Source: Patescibacteria group bacterium | Lineage (GTDB): Bacteria > Patescibacteriota > Patescibacteriia > Magasanikbacterales > GWA2-37-8 | Assembly (NCBI GenBank): GCA_004321885.1 | Contig: SCQK01000008.1 | Coordinates: 1 to 44,042 of the forward strand | Reading direction: 5' to 3' | DNA: 44,042 nucleotides | Part shown: positions 2,915 through 38,375 of the stretch, piece by piece | How positions within the stretch are numbered: position 1 is the stretch's first letter | Layout: each line of letters begins with the position of its first letter | Program-made: the position numbers and the translations under genes | Notes under the pieces: generated by a model | Told to the model about the DNA's origin: nothing | The model's input: only the letters and a program-made list of their open reading frames with translations | Databases searched by the model: none

Positions 2915-3101
2915 GCACTGGCGACAATTCAAGTGTATTTGTGGAAGTGAGGTATCGGGCTTTTGGCCCTTAATTCCTCCACTGTGCCGCAACGGTAATG
3001 GTCGCCTTCGGCGACCGAGTCCGGTCTTCAAATATACTAAATCTCCCGAGCAGGAAATATTGTTTTCGCGTCAATTTCTGCTCGGCAGAAATTTTTTTGT
3101 T

Positions 3102-3716
3102 ATGAAAGGGATTCTTCCCCGCCCCGGGCAGGTCAGAATGACAATCGGGATGTTGATTTTGCTGATTTTAATCGCGATAGCGAGCGGGGTGTGGTTGTTG
3201 TTGGCAGAACAGAAAGATGCGAATACCCCTCTCTCTGTCTCTCCCCTAAAGGGGGAGAGAAGTTTGGATGCCTCTCCCCCTCCTGACATTCAGGCTCCAC
3301 AGCCCCGACGTAAAGTCGGGGACTATGGAGCCAGCCTCGTTACCCCTCCCCAACCCTCCTCCCGAAACAAGTTCGGGACAAGCTCTTATAAAGTGGAGGG
3401 TACGGCCACGAGCGCGCCGGTCGTTGGCGCGAAAATGCTCATCGGCGGGCAAGAGTTTATTTTTTCCGTCCCCGCGGGCGCCACGGTTTATGACGCCATG
3501 AAACAGCTGGCGGATGAGAAAAAAATATTTTTCAGCGGCAAAGAATACGCGGGCATGGGATTTTTTGCGGAAGAAATAAACGGCTTGCAAAACGGTGACG
3601 GCGGCAAGTATTGGATTTATTATGTCAACGGCCAGCAGGCAAAAGTAGGAGTCTCAAGTTATTTAATTAAATCAAGTGACATAATTTCTTGGGTGTATGA
3701 AAACGAAAAATTTTAG
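3102..3716 (+). CDS. DUF4430-like (transcobalamin-like C-terminal domain) membrane-anchored protein. The start is ambiguous among ATGs at 3102, 3138 and 3150.
   Basis: N-terminal TM (MLILLILIAIASGVWLLLA). The C-terminus (GKYWIYYVNGQQAKVGVSSYLIKSSDIISWVYE) matches the DUF4430 pattern. The linker contains two in-frame palindromic elements. The ATG at 3138 lies inside a P6 element. Confidence 0.55.
   Translation: MKGILPRPGQVRMTIGMLILLILIAIASGVWLLLAEQKDANTPLSVSPLKGERSLDASPPPDIQAPQPRRKVGDYGASLVTPPQPSSRNKFGTSSYKVEGTATSAPVVGAKMLIGGQEFIFSVPAGATVYDAMKQLADEKKIFFSGKEYAGMGFFAEEINGLQNGDGGKYWIYYVNGQQAKVGVSSYLIKSSDIISWVYENEKF
3108..3143. repeat. P6-family element; it overlaps the probable start codon.
   Basis: Compare the copy at 1928-1964. 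Confidence 0.6.
3226..3262. repeat. P1 palindromic element, in-frame inside the CDS (it encodes …PLSVSPLKGERS…).
   Basis: cccctctctctgtctctcccc-taaag-ggggagagaag. Confidence 0.65.
3295..3335. repeat. P2 hairpin element (gctccacagccccgac-gtaaa-gtcggggactatggagc), in-frame inside the CDS (it encodes …APQPRRKVGDYGAS…).
   Basis: A second copy lies at 40567-40606, intergenic. Confidence 0.65.
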
Positions 3717-5862
3717 AGGAGCAATTTTTGTCAACATCGTATTTTTTTTGGCAATAAGCGCGGCGGTTTTTTACGCGACGCCGGCGCAAGCGGATGAGGC
3801 GACCACTTCCACGCCCGCCTCCACCATTATCGTGCGCCATGAAAATCAAGTTGTGTTTAGCGGCTCTGCGCCCTTAGCCGCCACCATCTATCACGATGAC
3901 GTAAATAATATTGATTACACGTTGGCCACCGGCACGGTTTTTTCCGCCCTGGCGGCCGCGGACAATGCCAGCGCGGCCTTTGATATTACGGACGCGCAAT
4001 TTAATTCCGGCTTCAACAGTTTTTACGTGGCCTGCCTGGCCATCGCCAGCTCCACCAGCAGTACTGCGCCGCAAAATGCCTGCGCTAATTGGAACTATGT
4101 CGTGAACAATACTTACCCAAGCGTGGGCATGGATAAATATAATTTAAGCGGGGGCGAAACAGTATACGTGTATTTTTCCGATTCATGGAAAATTTCCGCT
4201 TCTACCAGCACCTTTCCGGCCAATACCACGACTACCCTGCAAACCTGGCGCTACCAATACGATAACACGGCCGAGCCCTGGGCGCCGGACGGCAATGACC
4301 TGATTGATATTTCCGTCAGCAATCCCTCGTCAACCGGCTGGTGGGACGCGACTATCACCGCTACCACCACACAAAGCAATGCCGGCGGCGCAGTTGATTT
4401 TAAGTTCGCGGCCACGGGCACATATTTCGCCAAAATCACATCGCTTGACTGGTCAAAATGGAGCAATCCCATCACCCTTTCCGTGTTGCCCGCTCTTGAA
4501 GTTGCGGCCGCAACCACCAGCGCCGAGCAAATCAACGCGGCAGTGGCGAAAGTTTTGAATTTTTTGAGAACAAAACAGGGCGCGGACGGCGCAATTGCGG
4601 ATTTGGGCACATCGGATTGGGCCGCCATGTCTTTTGCCGCGAGCAACACTTACGCGGCCGATGTCAAAAGCGCCGGCGCCTCGCTGGGAGAATTTTTAAG
4701 CGGCGCCGAAGCGACCACATCCACGGACCCGCTTAATATCTGCGCCGGCTATGCCCGGCACGCGCTGGGTTTGCTGGCCGCCGGAATTGATAAAAGCGAC
4801 GTCAAGATAGTTGAATTGAAAGACAAAATAAAAACCCGGTGTTATGCGGCCGGAATTGTGGGCAAAGCAGGCATCAACGATGATATTTTTATTTTGTTGG
4901 CCCTGCTGGCGGCCGATGAAAGCGTGGACAGCGAAATCGCGCAGGCCGCGCTAACGGCCGTCAAAACCGACCAGCAGGCAAGCGGCGCTTTTACCTGGAG
5001 CGGCTGGCCCGGCCAGGATGTAACCGGCGCGGCCATAAACGCGCTGAAATACGCGGCCGGCCGCGGCGCCGCAGTGGACGCGTCTGTGTTTGACAACGCG
5101 AAAAATTATTTGCGTTCCACCCAGTTGCCCGATGGCGGCTGGGGATTTGGCGCGGCCGACGCACTGACGACTGGCTGGGCGATGTATGGTCTAAACGCGC
5201 TGGGCGAAGGCCAAAGCCAATGGACAAACGCCCAGGGGAAAAATCCGTGGTCCGTGCTGGTCGGCACACTGGGCGCGGGCGGATATTATGAAACTGCCTG
5301 GAGCGCCGACGGCATTGATTGGTTTGCCACCAAGCACGCCGTGCCGGCCCTGCTGGGAAAATCATGGCCAGTTGTTTTGGCTCCGCGATATGTTGCCGCG
5401 CCTGCCTCGCCGGCAGTCGGCGGTTCTTCGCCGCCCGACGCGTCGCCTATAGACGCGCCGGTTTATTCCGTTCCGATTAGTTCATCTTTGCCCGGGATAG
5501 TTTCTTTCAGCGCCGTCACTGCCCCAAACAGCGCGGCCGCCGCGACTATTGTTGAAAGCGATAATGCCGCTATTTCGCCGCCAAACGCTCGCATCATCAA
5601 GTCGCTCAGGCAATTCGTCGCGTCTAAAAGCAAAGTGTTGCAAACCGCGGCCGGAATTAAAGCCGCCCCTGCCGGCGCCGCCAGCGAACAAAAAATCGCT
5701 TCACAAAAAATCGGTCGCCTAAGGCGACCGACTGCCATCGCGGAGGAAAAAAATCCCCGTGAAAATCCCCGCGCAAAAATTAAAGTTATATTTTACGCTT
5801 CGGCAATCGGCGTCGTGCTGGCCGGGCTATACCTGGGGCGTGGTCTGCTCGGGAAGGTTTGA
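3697..5862 (+). CDS. Secreted or surface protein of 721 aa with prenyltransferase/terpene-cyclase-type alpha-alpha toroid repeats and a C-terminal membrane anchor.
   Basis: Signal peptide (…ATPAQA). Repeated Q-x-x-DGGW / GWxxxGxxxAL motifs (QLPDGGWGFGAADALTTGWAMYGLNALG, QQASGAFTWSGWPG…). C-terminal TM (VIFYASAIGVVLAGLYL). It overlaps the DUF4430 gene by 20 nt, so the two form an operon. Confidence 0.7.
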   Translation: MKTKNFRGAIFVNIVFFLAISAAVFYATPAQADEATTSTPASTIIVRHENQVVFSGSAPLAATIYHDDVNNIDYTLATGTVFSALAAADNASAAFDITDAQFNSGFNSFYVACLAIASSTSSTAPQNACANWNYVVNNTYPSVGMDKYNLSGGETVYVYFSDSWKISASTSTFPANTTTTLQTWRYQYDNTAEPWAPDGNDLIDISVSNPSSTGWWDATITATTTQSNAGGAVDFKFAATGTYFAKITSLDWSKWSNPITLSVLPALEVAAATTSAEQINAAVAKVLNFLRTKQGADGAIADLGTSDWAAMSFAASNTYAADVKSAGASLGEFLSGAEATTSTDPLNICAGYARHALGLLAAGIDKSDVKIVELKDKIKTRCYAAGIVGKAGINDDIFILLALLAADESVDSEIAQAALTAVKTDQQASGAFTWSGWPGQDVTGAAINALKYAAGRGAAVDASVFDNAKNYLRSTQLPDGGWGFGAADALTTGWAMYGLNALGEGQSQWTNAQGKNPWSVLVGTLGAGGYYETAWSADGIDWFATKHAVPALLGKSWPVVLAPRYVAAPASPAVGGSSPPDASPIDAPVYSVPISSSLPGIVSFSAVTAPNSAAAATIVESDNAAISPPNARIIKSLRQFVASKSKVLQTAAGIKAAPAGAASEQKIASQKIGRLRRPTAIAEEKNPRENPRAKIKVIFYASAIGVVLAGLYLGRGLLGKV

Positions 5863-13664: not shown

Positions 13665-13831
13665 AAATATTGTTCTGGATTCCGGTCGCCTGCGGCGACT
13701 GGAATGACAGAGTAATGTGGTGCAAACTCCCGACTGAATCGGGATCCCACGTTGCCCCGATTATATAATAAAGAAGGTTGTTTTGTCAAGATGTTGCGAA
13801 AAAGCGCGTTTTAGGTTAGAATATTGAAAAT

Positions 13832-17649: not shown

Positions 17650-18056
17650 GTCATTGCGAGGTCGCCTGCGGCGACCGAAGCAATCCCATACAATCAAGTA
17701 TGCCGAAACGCAAGCAGTATTATGTTTACATAATGACCAACAAGAATAATACTGTTTTGTATACCGGTGTTACCAACAGTTTAGTCCGTAGAGCCTACGA
17801 ACACAAAAGCAAGTTCAGTTTTTATGAAAGTTTTACAAAAAAATACAATATCAATAAACTCGTCTATTACGAATGTTTTGATAATGTGAATAACGCGATT
17901 ACCAGAGAAAAACAGATAAAAGCCGGTTCGCGAAAAAAGAAAATAGATCTAATCAATAAAATGAATCCTATTTGGCGGGATTTGTATGGAGAACTTTACC
18001 CTGATTAGGGATGGGATTGCTTCGTCGGTCGCCTGCGGCGACCTCCTCGCAATGAC
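17650..18056 (+). mobile_element. GIY-YIG nuclease gene enclosed by P3-type terminal inverted repeats: IR-L 17650-17687, CDS 17700-18008, IR-R 18013-18056.
   Basis: IR-L is gtcattgcgag-gtcgcctgcggcgac-cgaagcaatccc. IR-R is gggattgcttcg…gtcgcctgcggcgacc…ctcgcaatgac, its near-exact reverse complement, including the shared core gtcgcctgcggcgac. Confidence 0.5.
17700..18008 (+). CDS. Small GIY-YIG nuclease-superfamily protein (YhbQ/UPF0213-like, about 102 aa).
   Basis: YYVYIMTNKNNTVLYTGVTNSLVRRAYEH, the GIY-YIG core. The ORF-track start at 17598 lies inside repeat DNA; the ATG at 17700 is taken as the start. Confidence 0.7.
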   Translation: MPKRKQYYVYIMTNKNNTVLYTGVTNSLVRRAYEHKSKFSFYESFTKKYNINKLVYYECFDNVNNAITREKQIKAGSRKKKIDLINKMNPIWRDLYGELYPD

Positions 18057-18521: not shown

Positions 18522-18608
18522 GTCATTGCGAGGAGGTCTGCAGACCGACGCGGCAATCCCAATGTTGAAAGGGATTGCTTCGGTCGCCACAGGCGACCTC
18601 GCAATGAC
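18522..18608. repeat. P3 MITE-like palindrome, an 'empty' copy with no cargo.
   Basis: It lies exactly between the trpS stop and the start of the 18106..18510 gene. Confidence 0.65.
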
Positions 18609-19664: not shown

Positions 19665-20135
19665 TTAGTAATGGTATTTACGTCCGCCGTTTATCATCAG
19701 CGCGCGGTAAATTTGCTCCAGCAAAAACACCCGGCACATTTGGTGCGTGAAAGTCAGGGGGGACAAAGAAAGCTCTAAATCGGCTTTTTGCCGGACGGAA
19801 GAATGTAGGCCGAGCGGTCCGCCGATAATAAAGGTGATATTTTTTCGCGTCTGTGTCTGGGAAAGCTGTTTTGCCAATTCGGTGGAAGAAAATTGTTTGC
19901 CGTGTTCGTCCAGGGCGATGATAAAATCATCCGTTTTCGGCAGGGCGTTTAAAATTTTGTCCGCTTCTTTTTGTTTTATCGTTTCCGGGCTGTCTTTTTC
20001 GCCAAAGGCCTCTTCTTTCAGTTCGCGGATTTCAATTTTCGTAAAAGGTTTCAACCGTTTTAAATATTCGGCTTCGGCCTCGCGCCAATACGATTCTTTC
20101 AGCTTGCCCAGGCAGATGATGTTAGTTTTTGGCAT
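19665..20135 (-). CDS. rlmH: 23S rRNA m3Psi1915 methyltransferase RlmH (SPOUT family).
   Basis: Collinear with RlmH (…IIGGPLGL…LTFTHQMCRVFLLEQIYRA…). Confidence 0.8.
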   Translation of the reverse strand: MPKTNIICLGKLKESYWREAEAEYLKRLKPFTKIEIRELKEEAFGEKDSPETIKQKEADKILNALPKTDDFIIALDEHGKQFSSTELAKQLSQTQTRKNITFIIGGPLGLHSSVRQKADLELSLSPLTFTHQMCRVFLLEQIYRALMINGGRKYHY

Positions 20136-21345
20136 ACGATTGCCATTCTTTTTTTAATTTCAAAAATTTGTCTTCGGCGATGGCCGCGCGGATTTGTTTC
20201 ATCAAATCCAAAAAGAAATGCAGATTGTGAATGGTGGCCAGGCGCATGGCCGAGAGCTCCCCGGCGTTAAAAAGATGGCGCAAGTAGGCGCGGGAATAAT
20301 GTTGGCAGGTGTGACAGGCGCAGTTTTTGTCTATCGGCTTGGCGTCGCTAGCGAACCGCGAGTTGGTGATGTTTATGCGATACCCCTCCCCAGCCCTCCC
20401 CTTATTAAGGGGAGGGAGAAAGAGCATGCCGTGGCGGGCCAAGCGGGTGGGGGCCACGCAGTCAAACATGTCTATGCCGCGTTCCACCACTTCAAAAATG
20501 TCCAAAGGCGACAGCCCCAGACCCATGCTGTAGTGGGGCTTGTCGGGCGGAAGCAGGGGGTAGACCCAATCCAAAATTTCTTTGGTCGCGGACATGTTGT
20601 AGCCGATAGATTCGCCGCCGACGGCGATGCCGTCAAAATCCATGGCGGAAATATGGCGCGCTGATTCTTCACGCAAGTCGCGGTGATTGGAGCCCTGGAC
20701 GATGCCGAAGAGATGTTGCCGATACCCCTCCCTCACCCTCCCCTTATAAAGGGGAGGGGATGATAGATGATATTCCAAACATCTTTTCGCCCATCTGTGC
20801 GTGCGTTCCATTGCTTCGCGCGCATACTTAGCATCAACATTGTCCGGCGCGCATTCGTCAAAGGCCATGATAATGTCCGCGTCCAGTTTGTGCTGGATTT
20901 TTATTGACGACTCGGGCGTGAAGCGATGCGTGGAGCCGTCTATGTGGCTTTTGAAGGTGACACCGTCCTTGTCTATTTTCGCCAAACGCTCTTTGCGAAA
21001 CTCCACCCCTTGTCCCTCCCCTAATAGGGGAGGAATTTGTTTGCCCAAACTGAAAACCTGGAATCCGCCGCTGTCGGTAAGCATTGGTCTGTCCCAATTC
21101 ATGAATTTGTGCAAGCCGCCCAGTTTGGCGACAATATCTTCGCCCGGGCGTAGATGCAAATGGTAAGTGTTTCCTAAAATTATTTGCGCGTTCAAATCGC
21201 GCAAATCAAAAGAATCCAGGGATTTTACGGTCGCTTGCGTGCCCACGGGCATGAAAGACGGTGTTTCAATGTCGCCGTGCTCGGTATGAATTACGCCCGT
21301 CCGCGCTCGGCTGTTTTTGTCTTGATGAAACGTTTCAAAAAACAT
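20122..21345 (-). CDS. tgt: Queuine tRNA-ribosyltransferase (tRNA-guanine transglycosylase). It carries three in-frame palindromic-element insertions.
   Basis: Full-length Tgt similarity including the zinc site CxCxxC…H (CACHTCQHYSRAYLRHL). The insertions encode [25 protein letters not shown] and PPLLGEGQG. Confidence 0.9.
   Translation of the reverse strand: MFFETFHQDKNSRARTGVIHTEHGDIETPSFMPVGTQATVKSLDSFDLRDLNAQIILGNTYHLHLRPGEDIVAKLGGLHKFMNWDRPMLTDSGGFQVFSLGKQIPPLLGEGQGVEFRKERLAKIDKDGVTFKSHIDGSTHRFTPESSIKIQHKLDADIIMAFDECAPDNVDAKYAREAMERTHRWAKRCLEYHLSSPPLYKGRVREGYRQHLFGIVQGSNHRDLREESARHISAMDFDGIAVGGESIGYNMSATKEILDWVYPLLPPDKPHYSMGLGLSPLDIFEVVERGIDMFDCVAPTRLARHGMLFLPPLNKGRAGEGYRINITNSRFASDAKPIDKNCACHTCQHYSRAYLRHLFNAGELSAMRLATIHNLHFFLDLMKQIRAAIAEDKFLKLKKEWQSYAKN
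20384..20421. repeat. P1 palindromic element, in-frame in tgt.
   Basis: cccctccccagccctcccc-ttattaa-ggggagggagaaag. Confidence 0.75.
20725..20770. repeat. P1 palindromic element, in-frame in tgt.
   Basis: cccctccctcaccctcccc-ttataaa-ggggagggga. Confidence 0.75.
21003..21034. repeat. P1 palindromic element, in-frame in tgt.
   Basis: ccctcccc-taata-ggggagg. Confidence 0.7.
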
Positions 21346-21494: not shown

Positions 21495-23711
21495 GTGTAT
21501 ATGATTGATTTTTCCAGCGACCTCAATGACGAACAATTAAATGTCGTTCTTAATGGCGACGGCCCGTGCTTGGTGTTGGCCGGAGCCGGCAGCGGCAAGA
21601 CGCGCGCCATTGTTTACCGTGCGGCTTATCTTTTGGAACAGGGCGTGAAGCCGGAAAATATTTTGCTCGTGACTTTTACCAACAAGGCGGCAGGGGAGAT
21701 GAAAGAAAGGGTGCGCGGACTCACCGGCAACGAGGGCTTGCCCTGGGCCGGTACTTTTCACAGCATCGGCAACAGAATACTGCGCCACCACGCCATGGCT
21801 TTGGGTTACATGTCCAATTTTACGATTTTGGATTCCGATGACAGCGAGTCATTGATAAAAATTTGCGCGAAAGACTCCCACCCCCCCTCAATCCCCCCCT
21901 CGGGCAGGGGGGGAGGATGGACCGGTGGTAAATTTCCCTCGGCCGGTAATTTGCAGGCGATAATCAGCTTTTCTCGCAACGCGGAAATGGCGCTTGCTGA
22001 AGTGTTGGAAACGCGCTGGCCCCAGTATGAGATGTGGGCCGACCCCCTGGCGGAAATCGCCAAGGAATACGAAAAAAGAAAATTACAGGCCAACGCCATG
22101 GATTTTGACGACTTGCTGGTGAACTTTTCGCGTTTGCTAAACGACCCGAAGATTTTGAAAAAATATTCCGGGCAGTTTCAATATATTCTGGTTGACGAGT
22201 ATCAGGATACGAATAAAATTCAGGCGTCCATCGTGAAAAAATTGGCCACCGAGCACGGAAATATTTTGGTCGTTGGCGACGACGCGCAAAGCATTTATTC
22301 TTTCCGCGCGGCCGACATAGAAAACATCTTGCGTTTTGAAAAAGATTTTCCCAAAGCGAAAATTTTCAAGCTGGAAACCAATTACCGCAGTAGCCAGGAA
22401 ATTTTGGACGTGGCCAACAACGTCATCGCCAACAATCCAAAACAGATAAAAAAGGAATTACATACCCCTCCCCAACCCTCCCCTTATAAAGGGGAGGGAG
22501 ATAGCGTTTCCTCCCCCTTTATAAGGGGGAGGTTAGGTGGGGGTGTCAAGCCCGAACTGCATCCGAAAATTGACCAAAGCGACGAGGCAAATTTCGTGGC
22601 CGAGAAAATCGCTTCGCTGATTCGCGGCGGAGTGGAACCGACCGAGCTGGCCGTGCTTTTCCGCGCGGCGCATCACAGCCAGCAATTGGAGCTTGAACTA
22701 ATGCGCATAGGCATTGATTACGATTATCGCGGCGGCCTGCGCTTTTTTGAACGCTCGCACGTGAAAGACGCCCTGGCCTACTTGCGCATACTGAACAATC
22801 TGGCCGACACGACCGCCTGGCTGCGCGTGCTTTTGTTTGAAGACGGCATCGGTCCGGTGGCGGCCGGCAAAATCGTGGATTATATAAGGAAGGTGGAAAA
22901 CGTGGAAGAAGTGGCCAAGGCCGGAGAGGTTTTGGGCGACAAAGCGCAGACGGGCTGGAATAATTTTTTACAAATTTGGAACAGCTTGCTGAATGTGGGG
23001 CCGGGCAGTCCGGCGCAACTGGTGGAGGCGATTTTGGCTTCGCCTTACCGCGATCGGCTGGAAGACGATTTTGGCAACGGCAACCAGCGGGCCGAAGATT
23101 TGAAACAGCTGGCGATTTTCGCGCGCAAATACGAAAAGCTGGATGACTTTTTATCCGAGGCGGCTTTGCAAGAGGCGTTTAGCATGCAGAGGAAAAAAGA
23201 AAGCGCCAGCAAAGCGCACGAGGGAAAAATTGTTCTTTCTACTATACATCAGGCCAAGGGGCTGGAGTGGTCCGGCGTGTTTGTGATTAATTTGCTGGAC
23301 GGGCAGTTTCCCAACGAACGCGCTTTGCGGGAAAACGGCGGGCTGGAAGAAGAGCGGCGCTTGTTTTATGTGGCGGTTACCCGCGCCAAAAAATATTTGT
23401 ATTTGTCGTATCCGCTGGCCGGCCCGGCCCGAGGCGGACAAAGCGGGGGCTGGGGAGACAGCGCGTCCGCGCCGAGCTCGTTTTTGGGTGAAATCAGTCC
23501 GGATTTGCTGGAAGATAGTTCGCTATTGCTTAAGCCGAGTTCGGTTTTTGATTTCTCTTCCCTTGCTAAGGGGAGAGATAGTGAGGGGTCGATCACATAC
23601 GTGGACGACCCGGATGCCGAGACCCGCCCCCACACCAAAGATTTTGGTGTGGGGGCCCGTCCCTTCCGCTTCAAACCCGGCAGTTTTTTGCGCGACGTGG
23701 GAGATTTATAA
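21495..23711 (+). CDS. uvrD: UvrD/PcrA/Rep-family ATP-dependent DNA helicase. It carries four in-frame palindromic-element insertions.
   Basis: Walker A GAGSGKT and helicase motifs across the length. The start is a GTG at 21495 or an ATG at 21501. Confidence 0.9.
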   Translation: MYMIDFSSDLNDEQLNVVLNGDGPCLVLAGAGSGKTRAIVYRAAYLLEQGVKPENILLVTFTNKAAGEMKERVRGLTGNEGLPWAGTFHSIGNRILRHHAMALGYMSNFTILDSDDSESLIKICAKDSHPPSIPPSGRGGGWTGGKFPSAGNLQAIISFSRNAEMALAEVLETRWPQYEMWADPLAEIAKEYEKRKLQANAMDFDDLLVNFSRLLNDPKILKKYSGQFQYILVDEYQDTNKIQASIVKKLATEHGNILVVGDDAQSIYSFRAADIENILRFEKDFPKAKIFKLETNYRSSQEILDVANNVIANNPKQIKKELHTPPQPSPYKGEGDSVSSPFIRGRLGGGVKPELHPKIDQSDEANFVAEKIASLIRGGVEPTELAVLFRAAHHSQQLELELMRIGIDYDYRGGLRFFERSHVKDALAYLRILNNLADTTAWLRVLLFEDGIGPVAAGKIVDYIRKVENVEEVAKAGEVLGDKAQTGWNNFLQIWNSLLNVGPGSPAQLVEAILASPYRDRLEDDFGNGNQRAEDLKQLAIFARKYEKLDDFLSEAALQEAFSMQRKKESASKAHEGKIVLSTIHQAKGLEWSGVFVINLLDGQFPNERALRENGGLEEERRLFYVAVTRAKKYLYLSYPLAGPARGGQSGGWGDSASAPSSFLGEISPDLLEDSSLLLKPSSVFDFSSLAKGRDSEGSITYVDDPDAETRPHTKDFGVGARPFRFKPGSFLRDVGDL
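21877..21920. repeat. P1-variant palindrome, in-frame in uvrD (it encodes SHPPSIPPSGRGGGW).
   Basis: cccaccccccctcaatcccccc-tcgggca-gggggggagg. Confidence 0.65.
22465..22545. repeat. Two tandem P1 elements in opposite orientation, in-frame in uvrD (they encode PSPYKGEGDSVSSPFIRGRLGGGV).
   Basis: Copy a at 22465-22502 and copy b at 22509-22545. Confidence 0.75.
23555..23590. repeat. P1 element (CTCTC variant), in-frame near the uvrD C-terminus (it encodes SLAKGRDSEGS).
   Basis: ctcttccc-ttgctaa-ggggagag…gagggg. Confidence 0.65.
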
Positions 23712-29100: not shown

Positions 29101-29125
29101 GTCATCCTGAATTTATTTCAGGATC
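29101..29125. repeat. P5 hairpin (GTCATCCTGAA…TTCAGGATC).
   Basis: Second copy at 37111-37135. Confidence 0.5.
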
Positions 29126-30238: not shown

Positions 30239-30314
30239 TGGTGGACCCGACGGGAGTTGAACCCGTTCCTCTACTTGTCAATGGTAGCATGCTAACCGTT
30301 TACACCACGGGCCC
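30239..30314 (-). tRNA. tRNA of 76 nt with an encoded CCA. The anticodon loop is AUUGACA, so the apparent anticodon is UGA (nominally Ser), but it has a short type-I variable loop. The isotype is uncertain.
   Basis: Minus-strand cloverleaf. Acceptor GGGCCCG/CGGGTCC, D-arm GTGT-AAACGGTTA-GCAT, anticodon arm CTACC-ATTGACA-AGTAG, T-arm ACGGG-TTCAACT-CCCGT, discriminator A, then CCA. A TATAAT about 20 nt upstream of the 5' end. Confidence 0.7.
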
Positions 30315-30550: not shown

Positions 30551-31411
30551 ATGAAGAGCGCCCAGAAGAAGGGGCCGCCGAGCCCCTCGTCTCGGCACAA
30601 CGACCTCGCCTCCCAACACAGGGGGGTGAAGAGCGGAGGAGCCCTCCCCTCCGGCGACGCCAAGTCGCCGAAGAGGAGGCCCTCCAAGATCAACAGCCGC
30701 CAGTTGGAGGGAATGGAATTTCAGTATCTGCTCCTTGACGGGCTTTGGGTCAAATGCAAGCAGTTTGGCTTAAGCGAGCGCAACAATACGGTTCTGCTCT
30801 GCGCCCTGGGCATCACCAAAGAGGGCAAAAGAGAGATCGTTGGCTTTATGACGAGTGACGCCGAGGACGCCGAAAGCTGGGGGCAGATGCTCGCCAATTT
30901 GAAAGAGCGCGGATTGAATAAGGACAAACTCGAGCTGGTCATTGCCGACGACAACGCCGGACTGGTTTCAGCCGTAGGCCACTATCTGCCGGGGGTTAAA
31001 TTACAAAAGTCCGAATGAAGTTATTAAAGAAGTGGTGCTGTGAAAACTTGACTTTTTAGCCACAAAAAGCAAATTGCCGCCGATGTCAAAATTATCTATC
31101 AGTCCAACAGTAGAGAAGAGGCCACCGAGCGGATGAAACAATTCGCCAGGAAGTGGTACGTGGCCGAAGAGAAAGCCGTGAACAGTTTGCGCTTCAATTT
31201 TGAAAAAACATTGACCTACTTTGATTGGCCGCCCGACACCTGGAAAAAAATCAGGACCACCAACATTTTGGAAAGAGAGTTCCGGGAAGTCCGGCGTCGC
31301 ATCAAGGTGTTTGATAATTCGTTCAACGACCAAAACAGCTTACTCCGATACGGCAATTCCATTTTTGACAATCTTAATAATCATTACCCTGCAAAAAGTT
31401 ATACACACTAA
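30551..31411 (+). pseudogene. Degraded IS256-family (Mutator-like) transposase. The N-terminal third is missing and there is a frameshift or deletion between about 31018 and 31090.
   Basis: Fragment 1 is …FQYLLLDGLWVKCK…REIVGFMTSDAEDAESWGQMLANLKERGL…LVIADDNAGLVSAVGHYLPGVKLQ. Fragment 2, in a different frame, is …KQFARKWY…FDWPPDTWKKIRTTNILEREFREVRRRIKVF…. Confidence 0.65.
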
Positions 31412-37001: not shown

Positions 37002-37245
37002 ATATTTGTCAATACTTAACAAAGATATAAACATGGCAGTTCTTGACACTTTTTCCCCCTTTCTATATACTATTGCCAAGAACGTTACCCCGAGTAATCG
37101 GGGCACCCGAGATCCTGAAACAAGTTCAGGATGACAGGGAACTCGTGGCTGAGCTTCATCGTTCAGCTTTTTGTTAACGACAGAAATTTAAGAATTAAAT
37201 TTCTTGTCAGTTAACAATCCGCCTTTGGCGGATATTCATTATTTA

Positions 37246-37280
37246 CCCCTCCCTGCCCTCCCCTTATTAAGGGGCGGGGA
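37246..37280. repeat. P1 palindromic element immediately upstream of rpsL. Its right arm may serve as the SD.
   Basis: cccctccctgccctcccc-ttattaa-ggggcgggg; the ATG follows 13 nt later. Confidence 0.65.
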
Positions 37281-37292
37281 AAATTAAGAATT

Positions 37293-37721
37293 ATGTCCAC
37301 AGTCAACCAACTGGTGCGCCGCGGGAGACATCCCAAAAAGCGCAAGACAAAAGTTCCGGCCCTGCAATTCACGCTGGACACTTTGCATCGCAAGAGAACG
37401 GATTTGCCGCATGGCGCGGCTTTTAAGCGCGGGGTTTGCACCAAGGTGTACACCACCACGCCCAAGAAACCAAACTCGGCCTTGCGCAAAGTCGCCAAGG
37501 TGCGACTCTCAAACGGCATGGAAGTTATCGCTTACATCCCGGGCGAGGGCCATAATTTGCAAGAGCACTCCATCGTGCTTTTGCGCGGCGGCCGCGTGAA
37601 GGATTTGCCGGGCGTGCGCTATCACATAGTGCGCGGTGTTTATGATACCCAAGGTATAGAAGCCCGCAGACGCGGACGAAGCGTTTACGGCGCTAAGCGA
37701 CCGAAAGCGGCCAAGAAATAA
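37293..37721 (+). CDS. rpsL: 30S ribosomal protein S12, with an insertion of about 15 aa between the PAL and RGVC motifs.
   Basis: …VPALQ[[20 protein letters not shown]][27 protein letters not shown]…. Confidence 0.9.
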
Positions 37722-37725
37722 TTTA

Positions 37726-37829
37726 CCCCTCCCTAACCCTCCCCTTATATGCGAAATGAGAGAGGAAACAAAAGCAATGCTTTTGTTTCCGAACGAATGA
37801 GCATATATCCAGGATATAAAGGGGGAGGG
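37726..37829. repeat. P1 element split by a 64-bp secondary insertion (37751-37814) that carries its own hairpin (ggaaacaaaagcaatgcttttgtttcc).
   Basis: The left arm is cccctccctaaccctcccc-ttata (ends 37750). The right arm is tataaa-gggggaggg (37815-37829). Confidence 0.55.
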
Positions 37830-37844
37830 ACTAACGAAACTATT

Positions 37845-38375
37845 ATGCGTGGAAGCAAAAAACAGGAAAAGCGGCCAATCGCGGCCGACCCAAAATATGG
37901 TTCGGTCCAACTGGCCAAGTTTATCAATTATGTGATGGAAAGGGGCAAGAAAACCGTGGCCCGAGCAATCGTTTACGGCGCTTTGGAAAACATCGCCGAA
38001 TCCGCCTCTGCCAAAGGAGTAGATGCGTCCTCTGGCGCCAAAGGCGGACAGGGCGGCAAAAAAGACGCGCTCAAAGTTTTTGAGGAAGCCGTGCGCAACG
38101 TGGCCCCCCAGGTAGAGGTGCGCTCGCGGCGCGTGGGCGGAGCCAACTATCAGGTGCCCATGCCTGTCAGCTCCTCGCGCCAGCACGCCCTTACTTTCCG
38201 CTGGATTATAGACGCGGCGCGCAATAAAAAAGGCCTGCCCATGGCCAAAAAGCTAGCCCAGGTTTTGCTTGACGCCAGCAACAACACCGGCGACGCCATG
38301 AAAAAGCGCGACGACGTGCATAGAATGGCCGAAGCCAACAAGGCCTTCGCGCACTTTGCCCGCTTTGCTAAATAA
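37845..38375 (+). CDS. rpsG: 30S ribosomal protein S7, with an insertion of about 14 aa (…[14 protein letters not shown]…).
   Basis: S7 similarity (…[16 protein letters not shown]…[15 protein letters not shown]). The start is at the ATG at 37845. Confidence 0.85.

Follow-up and report, generated by a model that had tools for sequence, protein, structure and literature searches.

A hairpin nested within a hairpin in the rpsL-rpsG spacer of a Patescibacteria genome

How did 123 nucleotides (nt) of hairpin-forming DNA come to lie between rpsL and rpsG, two tightly coupled ribosomal protein genes, in an uncultured member of the Patescibacteria? The genes are carried by a complete contig of 44,042 bp (SCQK01000008.1; "the window" below is this whole stretch of DNA) from a metagenome-assembled genome (MAG) of the Patescibacteria, or Candidate Phyla Radiation (CPR), near Magasanikbacteria. 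On the plus strand, rpsL (ribosomal protein S12; 37293-37721, with its TAA stop at 37719-37721) is followed by rpsG (ribosomal protein S7, 176 amino acids; 37845-38375, with an ATG start at 37845). The spacer between them contains one copy of a dispersed palindrome, here called P1, whose loop is split by a second hairpin. We suggest, with a probability of roughly 60%, that the spacer grew from a few bases to its present length when selfish hairpin DNA was gained twice in succession.

P1 has the form TACCCCTCCCCAACCCTCCCC-TTATAAA-GGGGAGGG and is the commonest short palindromic repeat in the window, where repeat finding and pattern scans recovered 17 copies on both strands. Its fuller consensus is (A/T)TACCCCTCCCC-AA-CCCTCCCC-TTATAAA-GGGGAGGG, and the TTATAAA consensus loop is found in three uninterrupted copies. 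The 18-nt left arm has eight matches in the window at no more than three mismatches, against 0.02 expected. Spacing within the palindrome was scanned in the ten copies whose 21-nt left module carries at most five substitutions. The G-rich arm lies 2-8 nt downstream of the left module in seven of these; in an eighth (23570, minus strand) this arm is a degenerate GGGAAGAG, located 7 nt downstream and missed by the scoring of the scan. The remaining two copies, at 3341 (31 nt) and in the rpsL-rpsG spacer (76 nt), are the only ones whose G block is distant.

The spacer reads TT-TACCCCTCCCTAACCCTCCCC-TTATA-[65 nt]-TATAAA-GGGGGAGGG-ACTAACGAAACTATT. The left P1 module, TACCCCTCCCTAACCCTCCCC (37724-37744), is made of two C-rich blocks, TACCCCTCCC-TAA-CCCTCCCC, and is one substitution off the consensus; it shows no mismatch to the 18-mer by which the initial annotation of this DNA had defined the arm. 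It runs into TTATA (37745-37749), the left part of the P1 loop. The right part of the loop, TATAAA (37815-37820), leads into the right arm GGGGGAGGG (37821-37829), which pairs with the C block in both the RNA and the DNA fold. Nearly all G blocks in the window are part of P1 hairpins, and because they hardly occur elsewhere, the pairing of the left and right halves in the spacer is not a product of chance.

TATA stands on both sides of the 65-nt segment, at 37746-37749 and at 37815-37818. Deletion of 37750-37818, that is, of the segment together with one TATA, joins 37749 to 37819 to give CCCCTTATAAAGGGGG and rebuilds the consensus P1 loop, CCCC-TTATAAA-GGGGG, exactly. From the sequence, this footprint fits what would be left by an insertion through a 4-nt staggered cut in which TATA was duplicated.

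The inserted segment (37750-37814, plus strand) corresponds to the 64 nt at 37751-37814 that the initial annotation had singled out, with T37750 added. Together with adjoining loop nucleotides it forms a hairpin of its own (37746-37807), in which a 7-bp basal stem, TATATGC/GCATATA (37746-37752 with 37801-37807), leads through an 11x10 internal loop to a 12-bp stem at the apex. The apical part, GGAAACAAAAGC-AAT-GCTTTTGTTTCC (37764-37790), is a perfect hairpin with a 3-nt loop, flanked within the insert by GCGAAATGAGAGAGG and CGAACGAATGAGCATAT. The 7-bp basal stem is also a candidate terminal inverted repeat of the insert; it overlaps the TATA repeat, and seven further nucleotides (TCCAGGA) lie outside it. 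A third palindrome, the perfect 15-nt TATATCCAGGATATA (TATATCC-A-GGATATA; 37804-37818), spans the end of the insert and the right TATA and appears as a minus-strand self-match in blastn-short. The inner hairpin alone folds as DNA at -14.1 kcal/mol (z score of -7.2), with identical pairing in the RNA fold. The composite structure of the whole spacer reaches -43.6 kcal/mol as RNA, with z scores against shuffles of -5.7 as RNA and -6.4 as DNA. The description from which this work started holds in its observations: every coordinate and sequence quoted there is correct, a second hairpin interrupts the P1 palindrome in its loop, and the intervening segment has its own inverted repeat.

Relatives of this genome differ in the spacer. 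The closest relative, a Logan contig (L005), agrees with the window in gene order (HTH_17-rpsL-rpsG) and is about 90% identical to it in nucleotides over rpsL and its promoter. In L005, only 3 nt separate the rpsL stop from the rpsG start (TAA-TAT-ATG). Since the spacer of L005 is so short, the whole block of about 120 nt was gained in the lineage of the window. The alignment places the tail ACTAACGAAACTATT (37830-37844) just ahead of the rpsG start within the block missing from L005. Spacers of eight relatives measure 3, 30, 35, 103, 128, 130 and 134 nt and are unrelated to one another in sequence; no structure is present in the short ones, and the long ones bear lineage-specific palindromes of their own. 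The P1 core was found in none of the relative loci examined.

In the scenario that we favor, a dispersed P1 copy would have landed first in the A/T-rich junction TAA-TAT-ATG. A hairpin-forming segment of about 65 nt would then have entered the exposed TTATAAA loop of that copy and duplicated TATA. As the insert sits at the apex, the P1 arms still pair, and the composite folds as one long coaxial hairpin. The base of that hairpin lies 5 nt past the rpsL stop and 15 nt ahead of the rpsG start, a placement that probably makes it tolerable to the essential operon. Which of the two events came first, how the insertion took place (the enzyme, and whether single-stranded or double-stranded DNA was the target), a preference for loops and tolerance through folding are parts of this scenario that we infer.

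Nesting of one hairpin in another is not confined to this spacer and is general in this genome, with at least five hairpin families in the 44-kb contig. The second interrupted P1 copy (3341-3400, plus strand) has its left module at 3341-3361, its TTATAAA loop at 3386-3392 and its right arm, GTGGAGGG, at 3393-3400. The hairpin inside it, TCCCGAAACAAGTTCGGGA (3360-3378), is one of a family with three copies in the window against 0.07 expected, the others being at 29105-29123 (minus strand) and 37113-37131, and the copy within P1 shows a compensatory C-G to T-A change in its stem. A further hairpin, GTCGCC-NNN-GGCGAC, occurs six times (3001-3015, 5714-5728, 13685-13699, 17661-17675, 18028-18042 and 18583-18597). 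Three of these copies sit at the apex of another palindrome, P2, a fourth is apical in a GGATTCCG...TGGAATGACAG element, and the other two are free-standing; GTCGCC-NNN-GGCGAC is a modular inner hairpin common to different outer palindromes. P2, TGTCATTGCGAG-[centre]-GAAGCAATCCCA, has 13 copies in which the outer arms are conserved and the centre differs, though still palindromic, in almost every copy. Its positions include 16106, 17555, 17649, 18521, 21401 and 40883 on the plus strand and 1964, 17642, 18057, 18609, 21490 and 40980 on the minus strand. Changes thus concentrate at hairpin apices. This pattern fits loop-targeted insertion, and it fits equally well a survival bias, in which the copies that remain are those whose arms can still pair, or diversification in place.

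P1 is also found within genes. Seven copies lie in frame inside two conserved enzymes, three in TGT (20122-21345, minus strand; copies at 20380-20416, 20722-20758 and 20998-21034) and four in UvrD (21495-23711, plus strand; copies at 21878-21915, 22462-22498, 22509-22544 and 23555-23589). They add peptides of 11-28 amino acids (11-13 for the three in TGT) that are lacking in the TGT of Z. mobilis and in the UvrD of a relative. Both open reading frames (ORFs) are intact and have strong Pfam scores (TGT, E = 4e-146; UvrD is an ORF of 738 amino acids). A stretch of UvrD specific to the window, TPPQPSPYKGEGDSVSSPFIRGRLGGGV, derives from a head-to-head pair of P1 copies. At the same loops of TGT, a relative (L002) carries hairpins of other families, implying that permissive protein loops were colonised repeatedly and independently.

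S7 itself has a lineage-variable insertion of 0-18 amino acids in a single loop, at residues 53-70 (about 38001-38054 in the window). We considered a palindromic origin for this insertion and set it aside; the DNA palindrome is weak and its fold is not significant (z score of -1.6).

The initial annotation had also read the inner segment as a second element that inserts, and had raised the question of whether it always lands in TTATAA loops; neither point was confirmed. In the window, the segment is single-copy by exact, 3-mismatch and blastn-short searches, against 17 copies of P1 in the same 44 kb. Its hairpin core has two exact matches in 596 Gb of GTDB species genomes, a collection without this genome, and both have unrelated flanks. 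In JGI metagenomes there are 29 core matches, all of them generic, terminator-like AAAACAAAAGC hairpins on unrelated contigs and with unrelated flanks, and IMG/VR gave no match to the inner core. Six-frame peptides of the insert, compared with 5.8 billion proteins, yielded six word-sharing candidates, none of which scored. The multiple dispersed copies expected of a MITE (a miniature transposable element with inverted repeats) were thus lacking for the 65-nt segment in the window, GTDB, JGI and IMG/VR. Because it is single-copy in all of the data searched, the inner segment cannot be called a second mobile family or a member of any repeat family. The other interrupted P1 does not show invariable insertion into the loop either, given that its inner hairpin sits at the junction of left arm and loop, beside a CTC repeat and outside the loop proper. 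In the spacer, the TATA repeat and the restored loop agree with insertion at a TA-rich loop. For P1 itself, 15 copies with aligned flanks show no consistent TA target or other repeat, and a TA target duplication was rejected for that family.

For P1, IMG/VR yielded a single P1-like exact core, at 471-560 of a predicted viral contig (IMGVR_UViG_3300025311_000216). There it adjoins a P2-like arm (GCTCGCAATGAC), and this viral contig bears the same kinds of hairpins as the window.

Several points weigh against two successive insertions. The inner segment has no second copy in the data searched, and its mobility would be argued by analogy only. None of the relatives examined shows an uninterrupted P1 in the spacer, the empty site that would attest the proposed order of events. 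TATA is only 4 nt long, of low complexity and part of an A/T loop, and its duplication could be a coincidence. P2 apices that differ from copy to copy could mean diversification in place. Finally, the window encodes no transposase that would plausibly move these hairpins, only a fragment of an IS256-family enzyme.

Some of these points lead to the alternative that we take most seriously, though we consider it unlikely: that the P1 apex grew in place through replication errors associated with hairpins or cruciforms, and that the 65 nt were never imported as a unit. New inverted repeats at the apex would follow naturally from fold-back priming, from template switching, or from cleavage of the loop with filler repair afterwards. 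The uniqueness of the inner segment in every collection searched speaks for such growth, and the 13 P2 copies, with arms kept and palindromic centres that differ, can be read in the same way. The insert is also built of concentric and adjacent palindromes (the 7-bp and 12-bp stems and TATATCCAGGATATA). However, its 11x10 internal loop is asymmetric, unlike the prediction of simple fold-back copying, and the two other nests hold inner hairpins that occur elsewhere as discrete units, which favors import. A local template was not found either. The insert shares TATATGCG and GGAAxCAAA with the start of rpsG, but as a local duplication of that start it was rejected, the alignment being no better than shuffles (p = 0.23).

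A direct repeat of TATGCG at 37748 and 37844 brackets exactly 96 nt in frame with rpsG. We take this repeat as a coincidence; otherwise the two halves of P1 would need to have arrived separately.

A bolder extension of insertion at the apex, which we hold to be doubtful, is that a system of very short hairpin elements inserts preferentially at hairpin apices and also in frame in essential genes (TGT, UvrD and possibly S7), in this lineage and perhaps in many Patescibacteria. If true, it would point to a structure-directed mechanism that acts on single-stranded DNA loops without a recognisable transposase. The rpsL-rpsG nest would then be a case caught in the act, and unique inner hairpins would be the product of the mechanism and not of classical transposition.

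It is improbable, in our judgment, that the interrupted copy represents a longer, MITE-like form of P1. On that view, the C-rich and G-rich arms would be the ends of the element, the 65 nt a remnant of its interior, and the common P1 copies of 40 nt products of deletion. MITEs generally arise from longer elements by internal deletion, and the arms of the interrupted copy are intact and correctly oriented. Yet the internal sequences of the two long P1 copies in the window, 24 nt and 65 nt in length, are unrelated, and the insert contains no coding remnant. The loop halves, moreover, rebuild the consensus with a TATA repeat, as expected for insertion into a P1 that was already complete, and not for a progenitor.

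The position of the hairpin raises a functional question as well. In the str operon of Escherichia coli, the intercistronic RNA between rpsL and rpsG contains the translational operator for S7, and the structure in the window occupies the same position. A cis-acting RNA of the str operon, either an S7-binding operator or a processing or stabilising hairpin, would accord with the very stable fold on the mRNA strand. Of the only two GTDB matches to the hairpin core, moreover, one belongs to a distant CPR MAG (L007; JAIXVU010000003.1, 2866-5464), where it is found 35 nt ahead of rpsG. We nevertheless give a functional RNA of this kind little credence. The hairpin is missing from the closest relative, and no related structure is present in the seven others. 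Because the spacers of the eight relatives are unrelated and range from 3 to 134 nt, a conserved S7 operator is argued against, and we rejected it. The distant MAG and the window have the 11-bp stem alone in common, with no similarity in the flanks; their S7 proteins are 51% identical, and a 436-amino-acid ORF of unknown function splits rpsL from rpsG in that genome. We regard the position of its hairpin as a coincidence or, at most, as a sign that the junction tolerates insertions. Rfam gave no match for the window at the gathering threshold or for the spacer at E <=10 beyond chance-level hits (CRISPR-DR34, at 18 bits where the threshold is 35 bits). The generic repeat that supplies the outer arms is found inside genes as well, and on the sense strand the hairpin is not trailed by a T-run. 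The spacer is best explained as ordinary selfish hairpin DNA stacking into itself and not as a conserved regulatory element.

Two more specific roles were considered and discarded. An intrinsic terminator is not supported, as the plus strand has no T-run after either hairpin and the antisense match is only weak. As read from the sequence, the G block of P1 is too far away to serve as the Shine-Dalgarno sequence of rpsG, with its GGAGG ending 16 nt before the ATG.

An assembly or library artefact, such as a chimeric hairpin read of the sort to which palindromes are prone, is extremely unlikely, given that the independent Logan assembly of SRR8426592 is identical to the window through the whole spacer and over all 251 aligned bases, and that the flanking genes are intact and in register.

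The insertion of hairpins into one another is a known kind of event, described for organellar palindromes, bacterial interspersed mosaic elements (BIMEs) and MITEs. The closest described phenomenon is found in Volvox carteri, whose mitochondrial and plastid DNA contain short palindromic repeats, dispersed hairpins of 10-100 nt with the A/T loops TAAA or TTTA, that are often inserted into one another to form larger composite repeats (PMC2670323). The plastid core TCCCCTTTAGGGA with its TAAA loops resembles the CCCTCCCC-TTATAAA-GGGGAGGG of P1. The Volvox palindromes are organellar, are limited to introns and intergenic DNA and account for about 80% of the non-coding DNA, whereas P1 belongs to a bacterial genome and is also found in frame inside genes.

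Insertion within genes recalls the Rickettsia palindromic elements (RPEs), which Ogata et al. are said to have described in 2000 as lying both between genes and in frame in genes, where they add peptide segments. P1 resembles them in its in-frame copies in TGT and UvrD, a trait that does not extend to the 65-nt insert. RPE-1 to RPE-8 are found in Rickettsia alone and have lengths of about 100-150 bp; P1, at about 40 nt and in Patescibacteria, is excluded from membership by length and host. Nesting, too, is not a defining trait of RPEs.

Repetitive extragenic palindromic (REP) sequences and BIMEs of Enterobacteria and Pseudomonas are likewise short, GC-rich, imperfect palindromes, present in many copies and in mosaic clusters within operon spacers. 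REPs, however, are extragenic, start with a 5' GTAG-type tetranucleotide and are associated with a REP-associated tyrosine transposase (RAYT) gene, whereas P1 starts with (A/T)TACCCC and occurs inside genes. No RAYT or IS200-like gene was present in the part of the window ORFs that was scanned. MITEs, such as the enterobacterial repetitive intergenic consensus (ERIC) variants with internal insertions, Correia elements and Nezha, are non-autonomous, have inverted ends and short target duplications and are sometimes interrupted. The inner segment differs in having only a 7-bp terminal inverted repeat and a 4-nt A/T repeat, and no second copy and no identifiable parent insertion sequence were found. 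The resemblance to the S7 operator of E. coli is limited to a structured RNA in the same position, as the spacer is not conserved in the nearest relatives. A literature search found no paper on such elements in Patescibacteria, which is not proof that none exists.

In the surrounding locus, fusA lies downstream of rpsG; S12 was identified through Pfam Ribosom_S12_S23 on the identical gene in the Logan assembly, and S7 through its homologues and NCBI naming. In a protein comparison, the next-best homologue of the window's S7 is only 75% identical. An ATG at 37749, inside the composite hairpin, is in frame with rpsG, and no stop intervenes up to the true start. The public gene call on the Logan contig (from its position 639) places the S7 start at this ATG and makes the protein 32 residues too long, an annotation error that was likely caused by the hairpin insertion.

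The region upstream of rpsL has also gained hairpins in the lineage of the window, as seen when 37109-37140 and 37173-37279 of the window are compared with 480-545 of that contig. Three blocks are missing from L005. The first is a P3-type hairpin (about 37109-37140). The second, a hairpin at 37178-37209, is bracketed by a direct repeat of GTTAA at 37173-37177 and 37210-37214. The third holds an uninterrupted P1 copy (37243-37279, plus strand), which lies immediately upstream of rpsL, together with one more small hairpin. A promoter-like sequence with an 11/12 match lies at 37043-37071. Between this near-consensus promoter and rpsL, a hairpin, GGCTGAGCTTCATCGTTCAGCT, is followed by the T-run TTTTTGTT (37147-37176). 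This element is conserved in L005, can be recognised in L002, and could serve the str operon of the clade as a leader or attenuator.

Elsewhere in the window, the IS256/Mutator-family transposase fragment (30551-31015) comprises 155 amino acids and covers profile positions 152-252 of 379. It adjoins a tRNA gene (30242-30314) and is followed by genes for a MoxR-like AAA ATPase and a VWA protein. At 1-1340 on the minus strand, a 207-nt tandem repeat encodes 69-amino-acid repeats (APEGWMTN...HPEWFKIYLDK...HPxLINLIK) and runs off the start of the contig.

For the biology of this lineage, the rpsL-rpsG spacer indicates that 120 nt of selfish hairpin DNA can be accommodated even at a tightly coupled junction in the streamlined genome of a CPR bacterium, and that later changes gather at the apices of hairpins. 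More important than the single nest is the overall picture, with at least five hairpin families, 17 copies of P1 and seven of these in frame. If it is general in Patescibacteria, it would affect gene calling, of which the rpsG start miscalled inside the insert in one public assembly is an example, as well as protein-family alignments and ideas about selfish DNA in "streamlined" genomes.

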